Shown one piece after another: positions 2,935 through 57,536 of a stretch of DNA of 64,000 bases (position 1 is its first letter; every line of letters starts with the position of its first letter). The stretch is taken from contig JAFTIH010000027.1 in NCBI GenBank assembly GCA_017456985.1, positions 1,575 to 65,574 on the forward strand, given 5' to 3'. The notes under the pieces were generated by a model that was not told where the DNA came from, made no database searches, and saw only the letters and a program-made list of their open reading frames with translations. Position numbers and translations under genes: made by a program. The stretch comes from Clostridia bacterium. Its GTDB lineage: Bacteria > Bacillota > Clostridia > Oscillospirales > CAG-272.

Positions 2935-3216
2935 AGAATAAAAGGCGATGACGAAGAGGGCTGAGCAAACGGCGCCATCAGAGAACCGACGGTTGGTGCG
3001 AGTCGGCGGTGACGTGCTTTCGCTTGTAGCTTCCGAGCCGAGAGGAAGAAAGCGAAAGCCGTAGAACCTCTCCGTGATTGCTGCGTAAAGGCATAGGACT
3101 TATAGGAGTCCGAGAGTGGCGCCGTCATTGGCGCAATTTGAGTGGTACCGCGGGATATAAGAAATTATAGCTCGTCTCAAAGTATTTTATGTCTTTGAGG
3201 CGGGCTTTTGTTTTAT
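2935..3216 (+). promoter_or_regulatory. T-box riboswitch leader 2
   Basis: GAUGACGAAG K-turn region and an AGAGA box. The T-box sequence AATTTGAGTGGTACCGCGG (3135-3153) is identical to that of leader 1. Terminator AGCTCGTCTCAAAG...CTTTGAGGCGGGCT plus a T-run at 3169-3216. Confidence 0.85.
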
Positions 3217-6440: not shown

Positions 6441-7499
6441 ATGGCAAACAAGGTACTTATGAAGGGTAACGAGGCAATTGCCGAGGCGGCGATCCTTGCG
6501 GGATGCCGTCATTACTTCGGTTACCCCATCACCCCTCAAACGGAGATCGCCGCGTATATGGCAAAGCGTATGCCCAAGATCGGCGGCGTGTTCCTTCAGG
6601 CGGAGAGTGAGGTCTCCGCGATCAATATGGTTTACGGCGTTGCAGGCGCAGGCTTCCGCGTGATGACCTCCTCCTCCAGCCCCGGAATTTCCCTCAAGGC
6701 AGAGGGTATCTCCTATATCGCAGGCAGCGACCTTCCCGCGCTCATCGTCAACGTACAGCGCGGCGGCCCCGGTCTTGGCGGCATCCAGCCCTCCCAGTCG
6801 GACTATTTCCAGGCAACGCGCGGTGGCGGTCACGGTGACTACCATCTGCTCGTTTACGCTCCCGCCTCCGTGCAGGAGATGGCTGACCTGACCGTTCTCG
6901 GCTTTGAGAAGGCAGACGAATACCGTATGCCCGCGATGATCCTTGCCGACGGTACGATGGGTCAGATGATGGAGCCCGTGGAGCTTCCCTCGGGCGAAAG
7001 CAAGACCTTTGAAAAGCCCTGGGCGCTCAGCGGCACCAAGTGCGAGCGTCCCCACAACGTCGTCAACTCTCTCTACCTCAAGCCCGAAAAGCTCGAGGAG
7101 GTCAACTTTGCACGCTACGAGCGTTACCGCAAGATCGAAGAGACCGAAACGATGTACGAGTCCTACTTGATGGAGGACGCAGAATATTGCGTGGTTGCCT
7201 TCGGTATTGCCGCACGCGTGGCAAAGAACGCCGTCATCGCGGCACGTGCCAAGGGCATCCGCGTGGGTATGATCCGTCCGATCACCCTGTGGCCCTTCCC
7301 CAAGGCACCCCTTGCCGAGGCGGCAAAGACGGTCAAGGCGTTCCTCTCGGTCGAGCTCTCGATGGGTCAGATGATCGAGGACGTCGAGCTTGCGACCCGC
7401 TCGCAGAAGCCCGTTCTGCTTTGCAACCGCGCAGGCGGTATGATCCCCACGCCCGAAGAGGTGCTTGGTGCGATCGAGAATATGACGAAAGGAGTATAA
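6441..7499 (+). CDS. 2-oxoacid:ferredoxin oxidoreductase alpha subunit (VorB/KorA-like)
   Basis: N-terminus MKGNEAIAEAAILAGCRHYFGYPITPQTEI is typical of the OFOR alpha family. Operon position is between the delta and beta subunits. Confidence 0.85.
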   Translation: MANKVLMKGNEAIAEAAILAGCRHYFGYPITPQTEIAAYMAKRMPKIGGVFLQAESEVSAINMVYGVAGAGFRVMTSSSSPGISLKAEGISYIAGSDLPALIVNVQRGGPGLGGIQPSQSDYFQATRGGGHGDYHLLVYAPASVQEMADLTVLGFEKADEYRMPAMILADGTMGQMMEPVELPSGESKTFEKPWALSGTKCERPHNVVNSLYLKPEKLEEVNFARYERYRKIEETETMYESYLMEDAEYCVVAFGIAARVAKNAVIAARAKGIRVGMIRPITLWPFPKAPLAEAAKTVKAFLSVELSMGQMIEDVELATRSQKPVLLCNRAGGMIPTPEEVLGAIENMTKGV

Positions 7500-10048: not shown

Positions 10049-11332
10049 ATGAAAAACTTTGATATTGAAACGCGTTGCGTGCAGGGTGGCTACACCCCCG
10101 GCAACGGTGAGCCTCGTCAGATCCCCATCATCCAAAGCACCACCTTCAAGTACGATACGGGCGAGGATATGGGCAAGCTCTTTGACCTGGAAGCGTCGGG
10201 CTATTTCTACTCCCGCTTGCAGAACCCCACCTGCGACACCGTCGCGGCAAAGATCTGTGAGATGGAGGGCGGTAGCGCGGCGATGCTGACCTCCTCGGGT
10301 CAGGCGGCAAACTTCTACGCCGTTTTTAATCTTGCTAACTGCGGCGACCACGTGGTGGCGTCCTCTGCCATCTACGGCGGTACCTTTAACCTCTTCTCGG
10401 TCACGATGAAGAAGATGGGCATTGACTTCACCTTCGTCAAGCCCAACGCGACTGCCGACGAGCTTCGTGCGGCGTTCCGCCCCAACACCAAGGCGCTCTT
10501 TGGCGAGACCATCGCCAACCCCGCGCTCAACGTGCTGGACATTGAAACCTTCGCGACGGTGGCACACGAGATGGGCGTGCCGCTCATCATTGATAACACC
10601 TTTGCGACCCCCGTGCATTGCCGTCCCATCGAGTGGGGCGCTGATATCGTGACCCACTCCACCACCAAGTATATGGACGGTCACGGCGGATGCGTGGGCG
10701 GTGCGATCGTGGATGCGGGCAAGTTTGACTGGATGGCACACGCCGAGCGTTTCCCCGGTCTTTGCACGCCCGATGACAGCTACCACGGTGTCACCTACGC
10801 CGAGCGCTTCGGCAAGGAGGGTGCCTTCATCACGAAGGCGACCGCGCAGATCATGCGTGACCTCGGCTCGGTTTGCGCGCCGATGACGGCGTATATGCTC
10901 AACCTTGGGCTGGAGAGCCTGCACGTGCGTATGCAGCGCCATTATGAGAACGGTCTTGCCGTTGCCGAGTATCTTGCAAAGCACGAGAAGATCGCTTGGG
11001 TGAAATTCCCCTCGCTTCCCGACGACGAGGATTACGCGCTTGCTAAAAAGTATATGCCAAACGGCACCTGCGGCGTCGTCAGCTTTGGCGTCAAGGGCGG
11101 CAGAGAAGCGGCAGAGAAGTTTATGACGGGACTTCGTCTCGCGGCAATCGAAACCCACGTTGCCGACGCCCGCTCTTGCTGCCTGCACCCCGCATCCACC
11201 ACGCATCGCCAGATGAGCGACGCGGAGCTGCTTGCGGCTGGCGTATCGCCCGACCTCGTCCGCTTCTCCTGCGGTATTGAGAGCGCGCGTGACCTGATCG
11301 CGGATATCGAGCAGGCGCTCGCAAACGTATAA
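10049..11332 (+). CDS. metY: O-acetylhomoserine sulfhydrylase (aminocarboxypropyltransferase), PLP-dependent
   Basis: 427 aa with Cys/Met-metabolism PLP family motifs: FYSRLQNPT, SSGQAA, and HSTTKYMDGHG with the PLP lysine. Confidence 0.9.
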   Translation: MKNFDIETRCVQGGYTPGNGEPRQIPIIQSTTFKYDTGEDMGKLFDLEASGYFYSRLQNPTCDTVAAKICEMEGGSAAMLTSSGQAANFYAVFNLANCGDHVVASSAIYGGTFNLFSVTMKKMGIDFTFVKPNATADELRAAFRPNTKALFGETIANPALNVLDIETFATVAHEMGVPLIIDNTFATPVHCRPIEWGADIVTHSTTKYMDGHGGCVGGAIVDAGKFDWMAHAERFPGLCTPDDSYHGVTYAERFGKEGAFITKATAQIMRDLGSVCAPMTAYMLNLGLESLHVRMQRHYENGLAVAEYLAKHEKIAWVKFPSLPDDEDYALAKKYMPNGTCGVVSFGVKGGREAAEKFMTGLRLAAIETHVADARSCCLHPASTTHRQMSDAELLAAGVSPDLVRFSCGIESARDLIADIEQALANV

Positions 11333-11351
11333 GCTGCCCGCGCAGTAGTTT

Positions 11352-11794
11352 TATTGTCGCTTTGCGGCAGTGGTATTCTGCTATAGGCAGAGTGGTATTC
11401 ACCTACGGTGAGTGATATTGTCCGCGCGGCGGACAGTGGTATTCTGCTATAGGCAGAGTGATATTCACCTACGGTGAGTGGTATTGTCCGCGCGGCGGAC
11501 AGTGGTATTCTGCCACGGGCAGAGTGGTATTCACCTACGGTGAGTGGTATTGTCCGCGCGGCGGACAGCGGTATTCTGCCACGGGCAGAGTGGTATTCAC
11601 CTACGGTGAGTGGTATTGTCCGCGCGGCGGACAGTGGTATTCTGCCACGGGCAGAGTGGTATTCACCTACGGTGCGTGATATTGTCCGCGTGGCGGACAG
11701 TGGTATTCTGCCACGGGCAGAGTGGTATTCACCTACGGTGAGTGGTATTGTCCGCGCGGCGGACAGTGGTATTCCGCTTCCGCGGAGTGATAGG
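11352..11794 (+). repeat. Hierarchical tandem repeat: ~6.7 copies of a 66-bp unit, each made of three sub-units (22+20+24 bp) of AGTGGTATT plus a GC hairpin
   Basis: AGTGGTATT or one-mismatch variants start at 11369, 11391, 11411, 11435, 11457, 11477, 11501, 11523, 11543, 11567, 11589, 11609, 11633, 11655, 11675, 11699, 11721, 11741, 11765 and 11786. The intervening hairpins are CTGCCACGGGCAG, CACCTACGGTG and GTCCGCGCGGCGGAC. Confidence 0.95.
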
Positions 11795-11837
11795 CGTGCC
11801 CCGCGCGCAAAAAAAATCAACGAAAGGAGCGACCGAT

Positions 11838-12755
11838 ATGCCCATTCGCATACCGAACGAGCTTCCCGCAACCAAAGTTTTAGCGGATGAAAACATCTTC
11901 GTGATGACCGAGACCCGCGCACAGACGCAGGACATCCGCCCCCTTCGCATCGCGCTTCTGAACCTGATGCCCACCAAGATCGACACGGAAACCCAGCTTT
12001 CCCGTCTTCTCGGTAACACCCCGCTTCAGGTGGAGCTGACCTTGCTGCATACCAAAACGCACGAGTCGAAAAACACCTCCAAGGAGCACCTGCTCGCCTT
12101 CTATAAGACATTCGACGACGTCAAGAGCGAGCGCTTCGACGGTCTGATCATCACGGGTGCGCCCGTTGAGCAGATGCCGTTTGAAGAAGTCGAATACTGG
12201 GACGAGCTTTGTGAGATCATGGCGTGGAGCAAAAAGAACGTCCACAGCACCTTCCACATTTGCTGGGGTGCGCAGGCGGCGCTCTATTACCACTACGGTA
12301 TTCCCAAGTATGCGCTTCCCGAAAAGATGTTCGGCGTGTTCCCGCATACCGTTTGCGACCGCCGCTCTATGCTCTTCCGTGGCTTCGACGACACCTTCTT
12401 CGTGCCGCACTCCCGCCACACCGAGGTGCGCGAGGAGGACATCCGTGCGTGCGAGGCACTGACCGTGCTTTCCACCTCTCCCGCAGCGGGCGTTTACGCC
12501 GTCAGCGCGATGGAGGGCAGACAGATCTTTATTACGGGACATTCGGAGTACGATCCCGATACCTTAGCAAAGGAATTCTTCCGCGACCTTTCGCAGGGGA
12601 AAGCCATTCGCGTGCCCGAAAACTATTTCCCGAGCGACAACCCCGAAAACCCGCCGCTCGTGCTCTGGCGCGCTCATGCTAACTTGATCTACTCCAACTG
12701 GCTCAACTATTTCGTGTACCAGACGACGCCGTACGATCTGGATACGATGGAATAA
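11838..12755 (+). CDS. metA: Homoserine O-acyltransferase (MetA family; probably O-acetyl-forming given the adjacent metY)
   Basis: Canonical MetA N-terminus [23 protein letters not shown] with SD AAAGGAG 8 nt upstream. The track start at 11742 lies inside the tandem repeat and is rejected. Confidence 0.9.
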
Positions 12756-13299: not shown

Positions 13300-16200
13300 A
13301 TGAAAAAGACGACGAAAATTCTCTCGGTATTGCTCGCGGTGCTTTTGCTCGTTCTGACGGTCCCCGTCACGACGGCGACGGCATCGAACGGCACCGACCC
13401 CTCTTACACCAAGAACAAGGTGGTCTCGGTCCTTTTCGACAACTCGGGCTCGATGCAGGGAGAAAAATGGAATACCGCGCGCTACGCTCTGCAAACGCTG
13501 ATGACGACGCTCGGCAAGAACGATACGCTCCGTGTCGTTCCGATGAACAAGACCAGCGGTGCCGTCAACAAGGACGGAGAATACGTAGAGGTCGATCTTG
13601 CCGCAGAGGATCGCAACAAGGAGATCGAGCGTATCTTTCTCACCGTAGGGGCTACCTTCCTCTCGGCAGCGACCCCCACCGGCAAGACGCCCTCGGAAAC
13701 CATTGGCGTGGCTTTGCAGGAGCTGATAGATATGGGCATGAAAACGACTGCCGAAACGGGCGCCGATGAGATCAGCAAAAACGATTACTTTCTTTTGGTG
13801 CTGACGGACGGTGCCTTCAACCCCAAGGGCGTCCCCGGCGAGGAGATCAAGGATCCCGCCGTGCTCTTTGACGGCTATTTCAAGGACGACCTTTCCAAGT
13901 ACGCTTCTTTCCAAAGCATCTACATCGGCTTCTCGGACGAGGCTCTTGACCTTAGCGCTTATTCCGCAAGCAGCGCGAATTTCTCTGCCTACAAGGCGAA
14001 GGATTCCGCAGCCATCGGCGGCGTGATGAAGCAGGTCGCCAACCGCATCACGGGCAGATACACGTTAGAGAATTTTACGGTCAACGGCAGTACCGTCACC
14101 ATTCCGCTGGATGGCGTGGGCTTTGCCCTAAGAAGCGTAACGGTGATGGCGACCCAGACCAACGCGCGCTTTTCGAGCGCCAAGTACGGAACGGAAACGC
14201 TCACCCCCTCTCAAAACGTGTCCTTCCAGCCCCCTGCCGGAATGGCGGGTAAGGGCGGCTTCACCGCGATCCTTTCCCGTTCTGCGGGAACCTTCTCGGG
14301 CGGCACCATCACCTTGACGCTGGACGAGGCGATCGAGAAAAGCTCCGTTTCCATCCTTCTTGAGCCTGCACTTGCGCTTTCTCCCATCGTGGAATGTGAG
14401 AAGGACGGCTCGTGGATCGAGGTGGATGCGGCTTACATCAACAGCAACCTCACGAAAAAGAACAAGATCCGCCTGTCCTACATCATCACGGAGCAGGGAA
14501 CGGGCAATACGGTGGACCTCGACGCCATTTTCGGCACGACGGTGGCGCGCGTGTCCTACAACACCAAAACATACGACGTCGGCGAAGCGTTCTCTCTTGC
14601 AACGGGTAACCACGAGATCGGACTTTCGGTCAGCGTGATGGACGGCGCGTACAGCCTGTACGCTTCCTTCCCCTGCGTGGTGCTTGACAACCCGACCTCC
14701 TTCCGCATCGAGGACGGCGGAACCGTCACCTCGGGCAACAACTACACCACCACCTTCAAGGTGTTTGACGACGGCAACCTGATCACCAGCCTTTCGGCGC
14801 TGAACGCTTACAGCCCCTCCGTCACGGCGACGCGTGAGGACGGAAGCACCATCCCCGTCAGCGTGATCAAGCGCGATGACGGCACCTTCGCGGCAACGCT
14901 TGCTCTGGACGGCGAGGCGTACGGCACCTTTAAGCTTCGCGCCACGGTGCGCTCGGCGGAGGGCAACCCCCGCACGCTGGACGTTGCGGTAGGGTACTAT
15001 CCTTCGGGACTCGTCATCACCCCCGACAAGACGGAGCTTTCCAAAACGCTCTTTGGCATCATTGACAACACCGAGGGCATCTCCTTCCGCCTGACGGCGC
15101 CCGACGCCGCAACGGGTAACGACATTGAGATCCCCTTCGGTCTTTCGCAGATCACCTACACGGTGACCGCAGGCACGGTGGATCTCACCGCGGCGGCAAG
15201 CGTTTCGGGCAACGTGCTTACGATCGTTCCCACGGCGGAGCTGCTCGGCGCGCTCGCGGGCAGCGTGGGTGAGCACGCGCTCAAGGTGAAGGTCGTCTTC
15301 AACAAGGGCAGCGCGGTCGAAACGGCAGAGGGAAGCGCCAAGCTCGCTCTGACCGATACGGTCTATGAGATCGTTCCCCTTGAAAAGACGCCCGCCCCCA
15401 TCAATCGCTTCTCCCTCTCCAAGAACGAGGGCTCCATCTATTTCCGCGTTCTGCGTGACGGCGTTTCGCTCTCCGAGGAGGAGCTTGCGGCACTGCTTGC
15501 CGACGGCTCGCTGACGGTTAACGCCAATCCTGCGGGCGGACTGCTTGACTTCATCAACGCCATCGGTCCGCTTGCCTCCGAGCAAACGGTGGAAACGGTG
15601 GACGGCGCCCCCGCCATCCGCGCGCGCATCTGCTCGTGTCAGGGCGGCTTCTTACCCTTCATCCTGACTGCAATGTTCGTTTCGGGCGATCGCGTCGAGA
15701 TGACGGCAAGCTATCGCGGTGTGGAGGCGATGAAGGCGGCTCCCCTTGCAAACGCGAGCATCTTCCAGTACGTCATCCGCATTCTCATTTACCTTTACAT
15801 CATCCAGCTGATCATCGTGGCGGTCACCTTCAAGGACCAGACGAAGGTCAAGCGTGTGCCGCAGGGCGCGCTCGTGCGTCTGTCGCTCTCCGCAAAGGAA
15901 GGACGGCACAAGGCGGTGGAAACCGTCAGGATCATCAAGGTCATCAGCCTGAAGGAGCACCTGATGCTCGGACGACTGATCCCCTTCGTAGGACTTCTGC
16001 CGCGCTTCCGCCAGAAGGACGTCCCCACCACCGTGGGCACGCTTCTTTACACCGAGACGGGACTTCGTATGCGCTCTACGCGTGCCTGCGTGGAAGCGGA
16101 GATCCGTACCCGTGACGGCAACAACCCCATCGTTCCCAAGGTTCGCCAGAAGTTTGCGAACATCAAGCCCAAGGGCGGTATCACGCTTCGGTACGAGCCT

Positions 16201-16344
16201 GCGGAGCTGAACAATATGTGGGTCGAGGCAACCGACCAGACCACCGAGGCGGCAAAGCTCTCCCGCCTTGGCACGATGAGCGGCCCCATCTTAAACGACA
16301 ACCTTTACGTCTTTATCGAGAAGAGCTTGTACGAAAAGCGATAA
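13300..16344 (+). CDS. Secreted or membrane-anchored von Willebrand factor A (vWA/MIDAS) protein with a beta-rich ectodomain, a C-terminal TM helix and a ~170 aa tail
   Basis: Signal peptide MKKTTKILSVLLAVLLLVLTVPVTTATA. MIDAS DNSGS (VLFDNSGSM) with downstream TPTGKT and LVLTDG. Long T/S/V/G-rich region. Hydrophobic helix IFQYVIRILIYLYIIQLIIVAVTF (nt ~15761-15832), then a basic tail. Confidence 0.8.
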   Translation: MKKTTKILSVLLAVLLLVLTVPVTTATASNGTDPSYTKNKVVSVLFDNSGSMQGEKWNTARYALQTLMTTLGKNDTLRVVPMNKTSGAVNKDGEYVEVDLAAEDRNKEIERIFLTVGATFLSAATPTGKTPSETIGVALQELIDMGMKTTAETGADEISKNDYFLLVLTDGAFNPKGVPGEEIKDPAVLFDGYFKDDLSKYASFQSIYIGFSDEALDLSAYSASSANFSAYKAKDSAAIGGVMKQVANRITGRYTLENFTVNGSTVTIPLDGVGFALRSVTVMATQTNARFSSAKYGTETLTPSQNVSFQPPAGMAGKGGFTAILSRSAGTFSGGTITLTLDEAIEKSSVSILLEPALALSPIVECEKDGSWIEVDAAYINSNLTKKNKIRLSYIITEQGTGNTVDLDAIFGTTVARVSYNTKTYDVGEAFSLATGNHEIGLSVSVMDGAYSLYASFPCVVLDNPTSFRIEDGGTVTSGNNYTTTFKVFDDGNLITSLSALNAYSPSVTATREDGSTIPVSVIKRDDGTFAATLALDGEAYGTFKLRATVRSAEGNPRTLDVAVGYYPSGLVITPDKTELSKTLFGIIDNTEGISFRLTAPDAATGNDIEIPFGLSQITYTVTAGTVDLTAAASVSGNVLTIVPTAELLGALAGSVGEHALKVKVVFNKGSAVETAEGSAKLALTDTVYEIVPLEKTPAPINRFSLSKNEGSIYFRVLRDGVSLSEEELAALLADGSLTVNANPAGGLLDFINAIGPLASEQTVETVDGAPAIRARICSCQGGFLPFILTAMFVSGDRVEMTASYRGVEAMKAAPLANASIFQYVIRILIYLYIIQLIIVAVTFKDQTKVKRVPQGALVRLSLSAKEGRHKAVETVRIIKVISLKEHLMLGRLIPFVGLLPRFRQKDVPTTVGTLLYTETGLRMRSTRACVEAEIRTRDGNNPIVPKVRQKFANIKPKGGITLRYEPAELNNMWVEATDQTTEAAKLSRLGTMSGPILNDNLYVFIEKSLYEKR

Positions 16345-57316: not shown

Positions 57317-57414
57317 CCTGAAACATAGTCGTCTGCTATCGCCTGCGCCTGCTCGGCTCTGCATACTCCTTGTTTCAGTTACATCCGTAAAAAAACAGTT
57401 ATCAACTGTTTTTT
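57317..57414. repeat. Tandem element copy 1: 63-nt core bounded by the inverted repeat CTGAAACA/TGTTTCAG, plus its own terminator-like hairpin
   Basis: Core at 57317-57379. Hairpin AACAGTT-ATC-AACTGTT flanked by A- and T-runs at 57389-57414. Confidence 0.8.
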
Positions 57415-57423
57415 CGCCGGTGA

Positions 57424-57522
57424 CCTGAAACATAGTCGTCTGCTATTGCCTGCGCCTGCTCGGCTCTGCATACTCCTTGTTTCAGTTAAGCACTTCGGAA
57501 AAACAATTATGAATTGTTTTTT
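57424..57522. repeat. Tandem element copy 2 (107 bp downstream of copy 1)
   Basis: The core at 57424-57486 differs from copy 1 at one position (C to T). It has a different terminator-like hairpin, AAAAACAATT-ATG-AATTGTTTTTT. Confidence 0.8.
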
Positions 57523-57536
57523 CTCGTTTACCCGCT

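Follow-up and report, generated by a model that had tools for sequence, protein, structure and literature searches.

A tandem hairpin array between metY and metA of a Clostridia bacterium, probably an amplified copy of the dispersed Gut-1 repeat family

The DNA analysed here (the window) is a stretch of 64,000 nucleotides (nt) from a Clostridia bacterium of the Oscillospirales (assembly GCA_017456985.1, contig JAFTIH010000027.1), in which the operon genes metY and metA are separated by a spacer of 505 nt (11333-11837) that consists nearly entirely of a nested tandem repeat. We conclude that this array is probably a one-armed, tandemly amplified copy of Gut-1 (RF01706), a repeat family dispersed in gut Clostridia, and not a met, S-adenosylmethionine (SAM) or tRNA sensor. 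The features of the locus are the following:

10049-11332, + strand: metY (O-acetylhomoserine sulfhydrylase), the upstream operon gene (NCBIfam TIGR01326, 563 bits)
11333-11346, + strand: hairpin 0, GCTGC-CCGC-GCAGT, directly after the metY stop codon (-5.1 kcal/mol)
11347-11355, + strand: AGTTTTATT, a degenerate U-rich first linker, the typical start of a Gut-1-type array
11356-11368, + strand: first array hairpin, GTCGC-TTT-GCGGC (fold energy -6.0 kcal/mol)
11369-11773, + strand: core array, 19 linkers alternating with three hairpin types (66-bp unit, 6.2 copies)
11774-11794, + strand: last hairpin, CCGC-TTCC-GCGG, and the decayed terminal linker AGTGATAGG (fold energy -6.8 kcal/mol)
11795-11837, + strand: residual native spacer, comprising a GC-rich stretch, a run of A8 and, at 11826-11829, the GGAG ribosome-binding site of metA
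11838-12755, + strand: metA (homoserine O-acetyltransferase, acetyl-type), the downstream operon gene (NCBIfam NF047918, 499.9 bits)

Tandem Repeats Finder called a repeat at 11364-11774 with a period of 66, 6.2 copies, 95% matches, no indels and a score of 731, and within it a nested period of ~22. The linkers are of the AGTGRTATT type, spaced 22/20/24 nt and each followed by a small hairpin. The three hairpins, T-CTGCC-ACG-GGCAG-A, T-CACC-TAC-GGTG-A and T-GTCCGC-GCG-GCGGAC-A, have predicted RNA energies of -7.4, -4.1 and -9.9 kcal/mol, respectively, and units 1 and 2 have a CTGCT-ATA-GGCAG version. The linkers, the three hairpins, their spacing and this variant had all been described in an initial annotation of the window and were reproduced here, except that its estimate of ~6.7 copies has to be lowered. 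Its 9-nt motif and spacing are real as well; the unit is better written as a 7-nt GUGGUAU linker between U-A-closed hairpins, because a T-A pair closes the foot of each hairpin and leaves GTGGTAT as the single-stranded part. When both strands of the 64 kb were scanned, AGTGGTATT was found in 15 exact copies, all on the + strand at 11369-11773, with no exact copy outside the array on either strand. Allowing up to one mismatch raised the count for the window to 24, of which 18 fall within the array (shuffled sequences, 5.2 +/- 2.5, maximum 12). The core linkers comprise 15 AGTGGTATT, two AGTGATATT, one AGCGGTATT and one CGTGATATT, and the total reaches ~21 at 11347-11794 if the decayed CGTGATATT (11677) and AGTGATAGG (11786) and the leading AGTTTTATT (11347) are counted.

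The sole terminator-like element ahead of the array is hairpin 0, which is weak and resembles a terminator once the AGTTTTATT that follows it is counted in. A sequence scan detected no promoter-like site between the array and metA, so that metA must be read through the array, and the array is necessarily co-transcribed with metY-metA as predicted from this absence. As the initial annotation had noted, no SAM riboswitch is recognisable at metY or metA: no riboswitch model of Rfam matched the window at E <= 1 or the region 11200-11950 at E <= 10, and a SAM or other met riboswitch was likewise found nowhere in the 64 kb at E <= 1. The gap between ilvE and metY, given there as ~70 nt, measures 119 nt. 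Since 66 is a multiple of 3, open reading frames (ORFs) traverse the array; these extend into metY and metA and are missing from relatives, and a coding repeat was dismissed.

In a permissive search with 4227 models, Gut-1 was the only Rfam family to match the array. Four full-length matches on the + strand (11390-11469, 11476-11555, 11608-11687 and 11720-11798) scored 38.7-44 bits, with E = 2e-7 in a search of 551 nt and E = 2.3e-5 to 4.9e-4 when all models were run on the whole window; a default Rfam search is silent on the array because these scores fall under 50 bits. The alignment spans model positions 1-77, with pairing in all three stems. The Gut-1 consensus consists of three hairpins parted by GUGAAAU or GUGAUAU, and the array has the same three hairpins and 7-nt linker, the latter being GUGGUAU, or GUGAUAU in four units. 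Canonical loci of other genomes score 50.9-74 bits on the same model, each arm in its own orientation. Gut-1 was described from human-gut metagenome reads only, with no function given (Weinberg et al. 2010, Genome Biol 11:R31, PMC2864571), and no later paper on it was found in the literature searched. The original alignment already holds long tandem runs, such as the four matches 240 nt apart in BAAZ01000130.1, and loci with a GUGAUAUU array in forward orientation and, behind it, an inverted AAUAUCAC array (PMC2864571). We class the window array as a Gut-1 array whose linker, copy number and location are unusual.

The family consensus bears on the suggestion of the initial annotation that the array is a multivalent T-box-like leader, which would sense tRNA charging by pairing the UGGU of its linkers with the 3'-terminal ACCA of uncharged tRNA and so regulate metA. 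UGGU is present in 16 linkers (the 15 AGTGGTATT and the AGCGGTATT), and genuine T-box leaders (RF00230) occur in the same window at 279-519 and 2939-3182 (+ strand; 75.8 and 82.8 bits, both under the Rfam cut-off of 93, E = 1e-14 and 2e-16). The idea fails because the consensus linker, GUGAUAU or GUGAAAU, lacks the UGGN needed to pair with NCCA; four linkers of the array itself are GUGAUAU. The RF00230 covariance model, run at E <= 1, gives no match to the array, which has neither a specifier loop nor an antiterminator/terminator alternative, and relatives carry no array. We regard this explanation as extremely improbable.

The distribution of the family was examined in a scan of one genome per species, using a pattern of three linkers 9-18 nt apart, which returned at least 120 loci (designated L with a number). 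At least 100 of the 120 matches listed are true hairpin-type arrays and a few are unrelated tandem repeats (e.g. L021, L028, L052 and L096). The hosts among these matches are nearly all metagenome-assembled genomes (MAGs) of gut and rumen Clostridia, including Acutalibacteraceae, Oscillospiraceae, 'Eubacteriales', Christensenella and Butyrivibrio, among them Butyrivibrio crossotus. At least 10 MAGs carry arrays on more than one contig, and two arrays occur together in each of eleven 8-kb loci; the window holds one Gut-1-type copy only, and such per-genome counts rest on MAGs. The family unit is a 5-8-bp hairpin with a T-A foot and a loop usually closed by C-G, followed by a linker of exactly 7 nt, GTGATAT, with the variants GTGGTAT and GTGAAAT. 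Most commonly, two convergent arms form an element of constant total length (172-176 bp): an F arm built of four AGTGATATT linkers and three hairpins, then the centre, TATTCGCC...AACT, and an R arm of four inverted AATATCACT linkers, of which the outer two are decayed to AATATAACT, with their hairpins. A long variable hairpin comes after this canonical two-armed element. One-armed arrays exist too (L041, L075) and start as in the window, with a strong hairpin and then AGTTnTATT, an opening also found in L289 and others; AGTTATATT and AGTTTTATT stand at the array starts of L041, L075 and L013. The GTGGTAT variant of the window is tied to the family by arrays that mix GTGATAT and GTGGTAT (L029, L069, L086 and the window itself). 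The ~20 linkers of the window are exceptional, since other loci among the matches listed carry at most 3-6 per arm. Pairing of the convergent arms within one RNA, which would form a rod of four-way junctions, is not supported, as GTGATAT arms face ATACCAC/ATATAAC without compensation.

In Butyrivibrio crossotus (L047:1883-2267), a 154-bp unit of five linkers with hairpins is tandemly duplicated, both copies scoring 66.8 bits on Gut-1, so that amplification of such arrays recurs. The arrays have no shared neighbour gene: in an all-versus-all clustering of 726 ORFs from 111 loci, the largest family was present in only 9 loci, and the largest families were AraC-type regulators, ATP-binding cassette (ABC) transporters and others. 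Nor did the family match any of 72,556 plasmids. True arrays accounted for only 2 of 87 pattern matches in viral sequences, and uncultured gut phage contigs gave two weak matches only. A phage or plasmid origin is not supported by these scans. The initial annotation had proposed a cis-element dedicated to the met genes, and the occurrence of the same repeat in more than 100 unrelated intergenic regions of many Clostridia argues against it. Cysteine synthase (cysK-like) genes adjoin four arrays (L031:6220-7580, L054:85-1358, L058:91-1289 and L063:1959-3098), lying upstream in two loci and downstream in two; together with metY-metA this hints at a link to sulfur amino acids, and equally well at chance or shared ancestry.

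The orthologous junctions were then compared. A protein-based metagenome scan gave 80 metA relatives at 65-76% identity, of which ~55 have metY directly upstream with a gap of 5-46 nt that accommodates just a ribosome-binding site. None of these ~55 junctions contains the array. Three longer gaps among the relatives hold unrelated sequence (an extra ORF or other DNA) and no array. Because the gaps of relatives are so short and arrayless, the 505-nt spacer appears to be a lineage-specific insertion in a tight operon junction. A met-specific leader was rejected on the same grounds, and with it the role of met regulator that the initial annotation had considered for the array. The units are 95% identical and adjacent units share variants (CTGCTATAGGCAG in units 1-2, CTGCCACGGGCAG in units 3-6), which points to a recent local amplification. 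An independent metagenome contig is identical over its first 218 nt and breaks off inside the array. Near-identical tandem units, an unusually high copy number and an assembly break within the repeat would also be expected of a neutral minisatellite of local origin with no relation to any family, another of the alternatives first listed. It is disfavoured by the specific matches to Gut-1 and by a detailed architecture common to more than 100 loci in other genomes, and we consider it very improbable.

To establish on which strand and in which nucleic acid the hairpins are conserved, 290 distinct inter-linker hairpins with 1640 stem pairs were analysed. Watson-Crick pairs made up 95%, and G:T pairs numbered 22 against 24 A:C pairs. 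Unidirectional terminator hairpins from the same loci showed the bias expected of RNA, with 21 G:T against 7 A:C (array versus terminator hairpins, Fisher p = 0.03). A G-U wobble retained in two units had first been taken as weak support for RNA structure, a trend that the family as a whole does not show. The loops are strongly polar. On the GTGATAT strand, the triloop TTC occurs 26 times against 0 for its complement GAA, TAC 17 against 1 and TGC 14 against 0 for GCA; among tetraloops, TTGC occurs 12 times against 0 for GCAA, TTTC 11 against 0 and TTAC 10 against 0. The loop-closing pair is C-G in 206 of 237 cases. Read on the ATATCAC strand, opposite to the Rfam annotation, the triloops become C(GNA)G and the tetraloops C(GNRA)G, the former being at least as frequent as the latter across the family. 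This polarity was seen family-wide (L002-L121), for example in L032:3507-3659. Triloops are uncommon in functional RNAs, and C(GNA)G reportedly marks unusually stable DNA mini-hairpins, as in the d(GCGAAGC)/GNA loops of Hirao and co-workers. The window copy shows the GNA/GNRA pattern only partially: TAC, which reads GTA on the other strand, is the one family-type loop among the three that are repeated, and the terminal TTCC (GGAA) also belongs to that type.

Array periods range between 18 and 27 bp; they are most often 22 or 25, show no preference for 21 and have no helical phasing. The linker is always 7 nt, and stem pairing is kept by compensatory changes. This combination points to recognition of a folded single strand rather than of a duplex. 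It weighs on the proposal that the repeats are protein sites in duplex DNA, such as an iteron, centromere or operator array with a 9-bp motif about every two helical turns. The mean spacing of ~22 bp agrees with such sites, as does the F arm that abuts the -35 box of an outward promoter in some loci, and we take the heptamer ATATCAC/TATCACT to resemble the WATCACW heptads of the omega repressor and the lambda TATCACCGC operator half-sites. Against it, the spacing is unphased, and the spacers are always palindromic with compensatory changes, which binding to duplex linkers would not need. The family is also absent from the plasmids scanned, an outward promoter is found in only 5 of 34 full elements, and the window array lies among ordinary chromosomal genes and not in a rep/par replicon. 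Duplex sites are therefore disfavoured, and we hold them to be quite improbable. The lack of a G-U excess, the lack of phasing and the polar GNA/GNRA loops suggest to us that the family functions through hairpins of single-stranded DNA; should it act as RNA, the active strand would be the one that Rfam does not annotate. The same stem and loop statistics would call into question a role of Gut-1 as a transcribed RNA on the Rfam strand.

These data also bear on the possibility that the array is a multi-site RNA platform resembling the trp leader bound by TRAP or the CsrB RNA, whose ~20 GUGGUAU linkers sequester or recruit an RNA-binding protein and thereby control metA or a wider regulon. The constant length and conserved sequence of the linker and the covarying stems are what a linker-reading protein would select, the array must be transcribed with metY-metA, and both Rfam and Weinberg et al. 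(2010) class the family as RNA. On the other hand, the array is absent at metY-metA in the relatives, and family copies adjoin unrelated genes in either orientation. As the usual element has convergent arms, one transcript cannot show both of them in sense. There is no G-U excess, the GNA/GNRA loops lie on the opposite strand, and no candidate protein was identified. A platform of this kind, suggested in the initial annotation, does not hold as a met regulator given the relatives and the unrelated neighbours; at the level of the family a multi-site protein platform is possible. Overall we judge this explanation unlikely.

The position of the arrays relative to their neighbours was analysed with all elements set in the F-to-R direction. 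In 35 of 49 cases the R-side gene is directed toward the element, and in 30 of 46 the F-side gene is directed away from it; where both flanking genes have the same direction, 23 of 32 pairs read from R to F. Of 58 elements, 50 have a terminator-like hairpin that faces their R end. The window copy obeys this polarity, as GTGGTAT is in sense along metY and the array starts right behind the hairpin at the metY stop codon. Thirteen arrays are located downstream of a tRNA gene at a distance of up to 250 nt (53-250 nt, usually 53-94), some of them at the ends of 23S-5S-tRNA operons:

L008:1326-1725
L022:1944-2853
L032:3507-4159
L121:167-1512
and 9 further loci

The orientation bias is real and not absolute, and insertion or retention behind terminators fits it better than an obligatory cis-acting RNA role.

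In seven canonical elements, an outward promoter is followed by a gene for a PF05635 protein of 116-128 aa (93-99 bits). Six of them are in loci of the genome scan and one was found via a homologue, whose exact look-up returned ten copies of one locus and hence one new context. These elements are:

L006:6009-6532
L013:449-928
L043:2429-2966
L045:5224-5526
L049:632-1150
L109:2316-2824
L289:2217-2857

The PF05635 gene begins 31-70 nt from the F end, always in the same orientation, and its promoter (TTGACT, TTGACA or TTGAAA, a spacing of 16-17 nt, and TATAAT) abuts the last F linker in several loci. The flanks of these loci differ, except for L013 and L109. PF05635 is the 23S rRNA intervening-sequence protein, of a four-helix-bundle family that includes Avd of diversity-generating retroelements. 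A copy with 50% identity, with a GC-rich array variant on both sides, is present at L003:6162-6518 in a MAG labelled Akkermansia. The PF05635 subfamily comprises at least 7990 clusters, most of them on very short contigs. No PF05635 gene is present in the window. The PF05635 protein is either a partner of the array, or array, promoter and gene form a small mobile module with many ORF-less derivatives. An outward promoter as a general part of the element was rejected, because no more than 5 of the 34 full elements have one (1.1 expected).

A further association was noted at the F end, which in different MAGs adjoins a near-identical outward promoter with a short leader, a GGTGAT ribosome-binding site and an ATG, at the following places:

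L022:1884-1944
L032:3447-3507
L097:4637-4697 and 7370-7430
L121:107-167

The promoter is TTGC(A/C/G)N-17-TATACT or TATAAT, and the genes that follow are unrelated small membrane or lipoprotein genes. In L097 the module occurs twice within 3 kb, amid a run of small ORFs on the same strand.

The PF05635 genes allow a more far-reaching interpretation, in which Gut-1 arrays are not small RNAs but the cis part of an unrecognised single-strand-hairpin repeat system in gut Clostridia with an Avd-like PF05635 protein as its trans factor, and the window array is a hyper-expanded orphan arm. Its full module may combine the PF05635 gene and its outward promoter with a convergent pair of four-linker arrays and a terminator hairpin. 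Such a module may move between genomic sites and leave ORF-less copies, with a preference for positions behind terminators, among them those of tRNA and rRNA operons. The arm in the window would then present ~20 binding sites in the metY-metA transcript or DNA. We put this forward tentatively and think it rather doubtful.

The explanation that we favour, and consider probable, is the amplified copy of the dispersed Gut-1 family. The repeat, its relationship to the family, the dispersal of the latter and the absence from orthologous junctions are observed. A copy with three hairpins would have landed just behind the metY stop codon, in a metY-metA junction that normally measures ~20 nt, and about six-fold amplification may then have followed by slippage or unequal exchange between identical linkers. 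Most probably the family acts, or spreads, as hairpins in single-stranded nucleic acid, by analogy with repetitive extragenic palindromic (REP) sequences and bacterial interspersed mosaic elements (BIMEs); its element would be a set of single-strand hairpins with a sequence-specific 7-nt foot, and the loop and stem statistics point to DNA over RNA. In the metY-metA mRNA, the ~20 stable hairpins would be at most a generic partial terminator or exonuclease barrier, and such a barrier would uncouple the levels of metY and metA. Action as single-stranded DNA and any effect on metA are thus proposed from the sequence statistics and the arrangement of the operon.

Several observations weigh against this explanation. 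The best Gut-1 score, 44 bits, is below the Rfam gathering cut-off of 50. GUGGUAU is an unusual linker for the family, and so are ACG and GCG, two of the three loops. Weinberg et al. (2010, PMC2864571) judged from covariation that Gut-1 is certainly an RNA, and called it probably non-coding. The bias of ~70:30 in orientation to flanking genes could mean a role linked to transcription, i.e. of the RNA, as could the tRNA genes, which are transcribed toward the array in 13 of 13 cases. With regard to spread, no transposase or HUH gene was associated among the 726 ORFs round 111 loci, a clustering that a single-copy transposase gene elsewhere in the genome would escape, and no target-site duplication was seen at the element ends. 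Finally, none of the relatives that came to light was closer than about 73% in MetA identity, and both the empty site and the boundaries of the insertion are deduced from these distant genomes.

For the met genes, these results would mean no new kind of riboregulator; the amplified insert probably only perturbs operon expression and breaks short-read assemblies. Gut-1, an orphan 'sRNA' of Rfam since 2010, is now placed in named lineages of Clostridia, and its usual form is now a fixed-length pair of convergent arrays behind terminators. PF05635 is very abundant, and a role outside diversity-generating retroelements is not established for it; it is joined here with Gut-1 in one testable hypothesis. 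Elsewhere in the window, an ORF of 1014 aa lies downstream of metA (13300-16344, + strand) and has no significant NCBIfam match, its sole match being a sortase-target model at 21 bits. A second tandem repeat, at 57317-57523, has a period of 107, 1.9 copies and 89% identity, and contains a terminator-like stretch.

Compared with the usual Gut-1 element, the window array shares at least three short hairpins, the conserved 7-nt linker, the strand and the occurrence in gut Clostridia. It differs in its ACG and GCG loops, which are of UNC/UUNC type in the family, in having ~20 linkers in one orientation instead of a 4 + 4 convergent pair, and in lying inside an operon, whereas the family is located behind terminators in non-transcribed DNA. 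The trp leader bound by TRAP and the CsrB/RsmZ RNAs likewise display many evenly spaced short single-stranded motifs by hairpins; unlike them, the Gut-1 arrays serve no single regulon, have convergent arms and are absent from orthologous leaders. Similarly, in the ToxI arrays of type III toxin-antitoxin systems a short structured unit is directly repeated in tandem immediately ahead of a gene, but the gene downstream of the array is metA and not a ToxN/AbiQ-type endoribonuclease, and the family has no conserved downstream gene. Iteron and centromere arrays differ by their helical phasing, which the 18-27-bp period of the family lacks, and by their rep/par replicon setting.

REP and BIME sequences (including REPINs) come closest. 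A REP is a 20-40-nt imperfect palindrome with a GT(A/G)G head, whereas the palindromes here measure 11-22 nt and vary in sequence. Only the linker is conserved and not the hairpin sequence, the head is GTGATAT instead of GTAG, and the element is a block of 4 direct and 4 inverted units of 172-176 bp instead of alternating REPs. No REP-associated tyrosine transposase (RAYT/Y1) gene was seen beside any of ~110 loci, and the host phylum differs, REPs belonging to Proteobacteria. Because of the unconserved hairpin sequence and the different head, and with no RAYT gene seen at these loci, the family is not a REP by membership. The likenesses are nevertheless extensive, as both consist of short extragenic palindromes with a conserved short 'head' in many dispersed copies (for Gut-1, across MAGs), grouped in direct or inverted clusters that lie mostly just downstream of genes and terminators and sometimes between cistrons, and in both the hairpin is conserved rather than the duplex sequence. 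The textbook analogue of the barrier proposed for the metY-metA mRNA is the intercistronic REP of E. coli. REPs between cistrons make the mRNA upstream of them more stable, and REP processing takes place on single-stranded DNA. A BIME/REP-like palindromic cluster had been listed among the alternatives of the initial annotation and is the reading that the evidence favours; a REP/BIME-like single-strand hairpin repeat would be the best analogue of the array between metY and metA.

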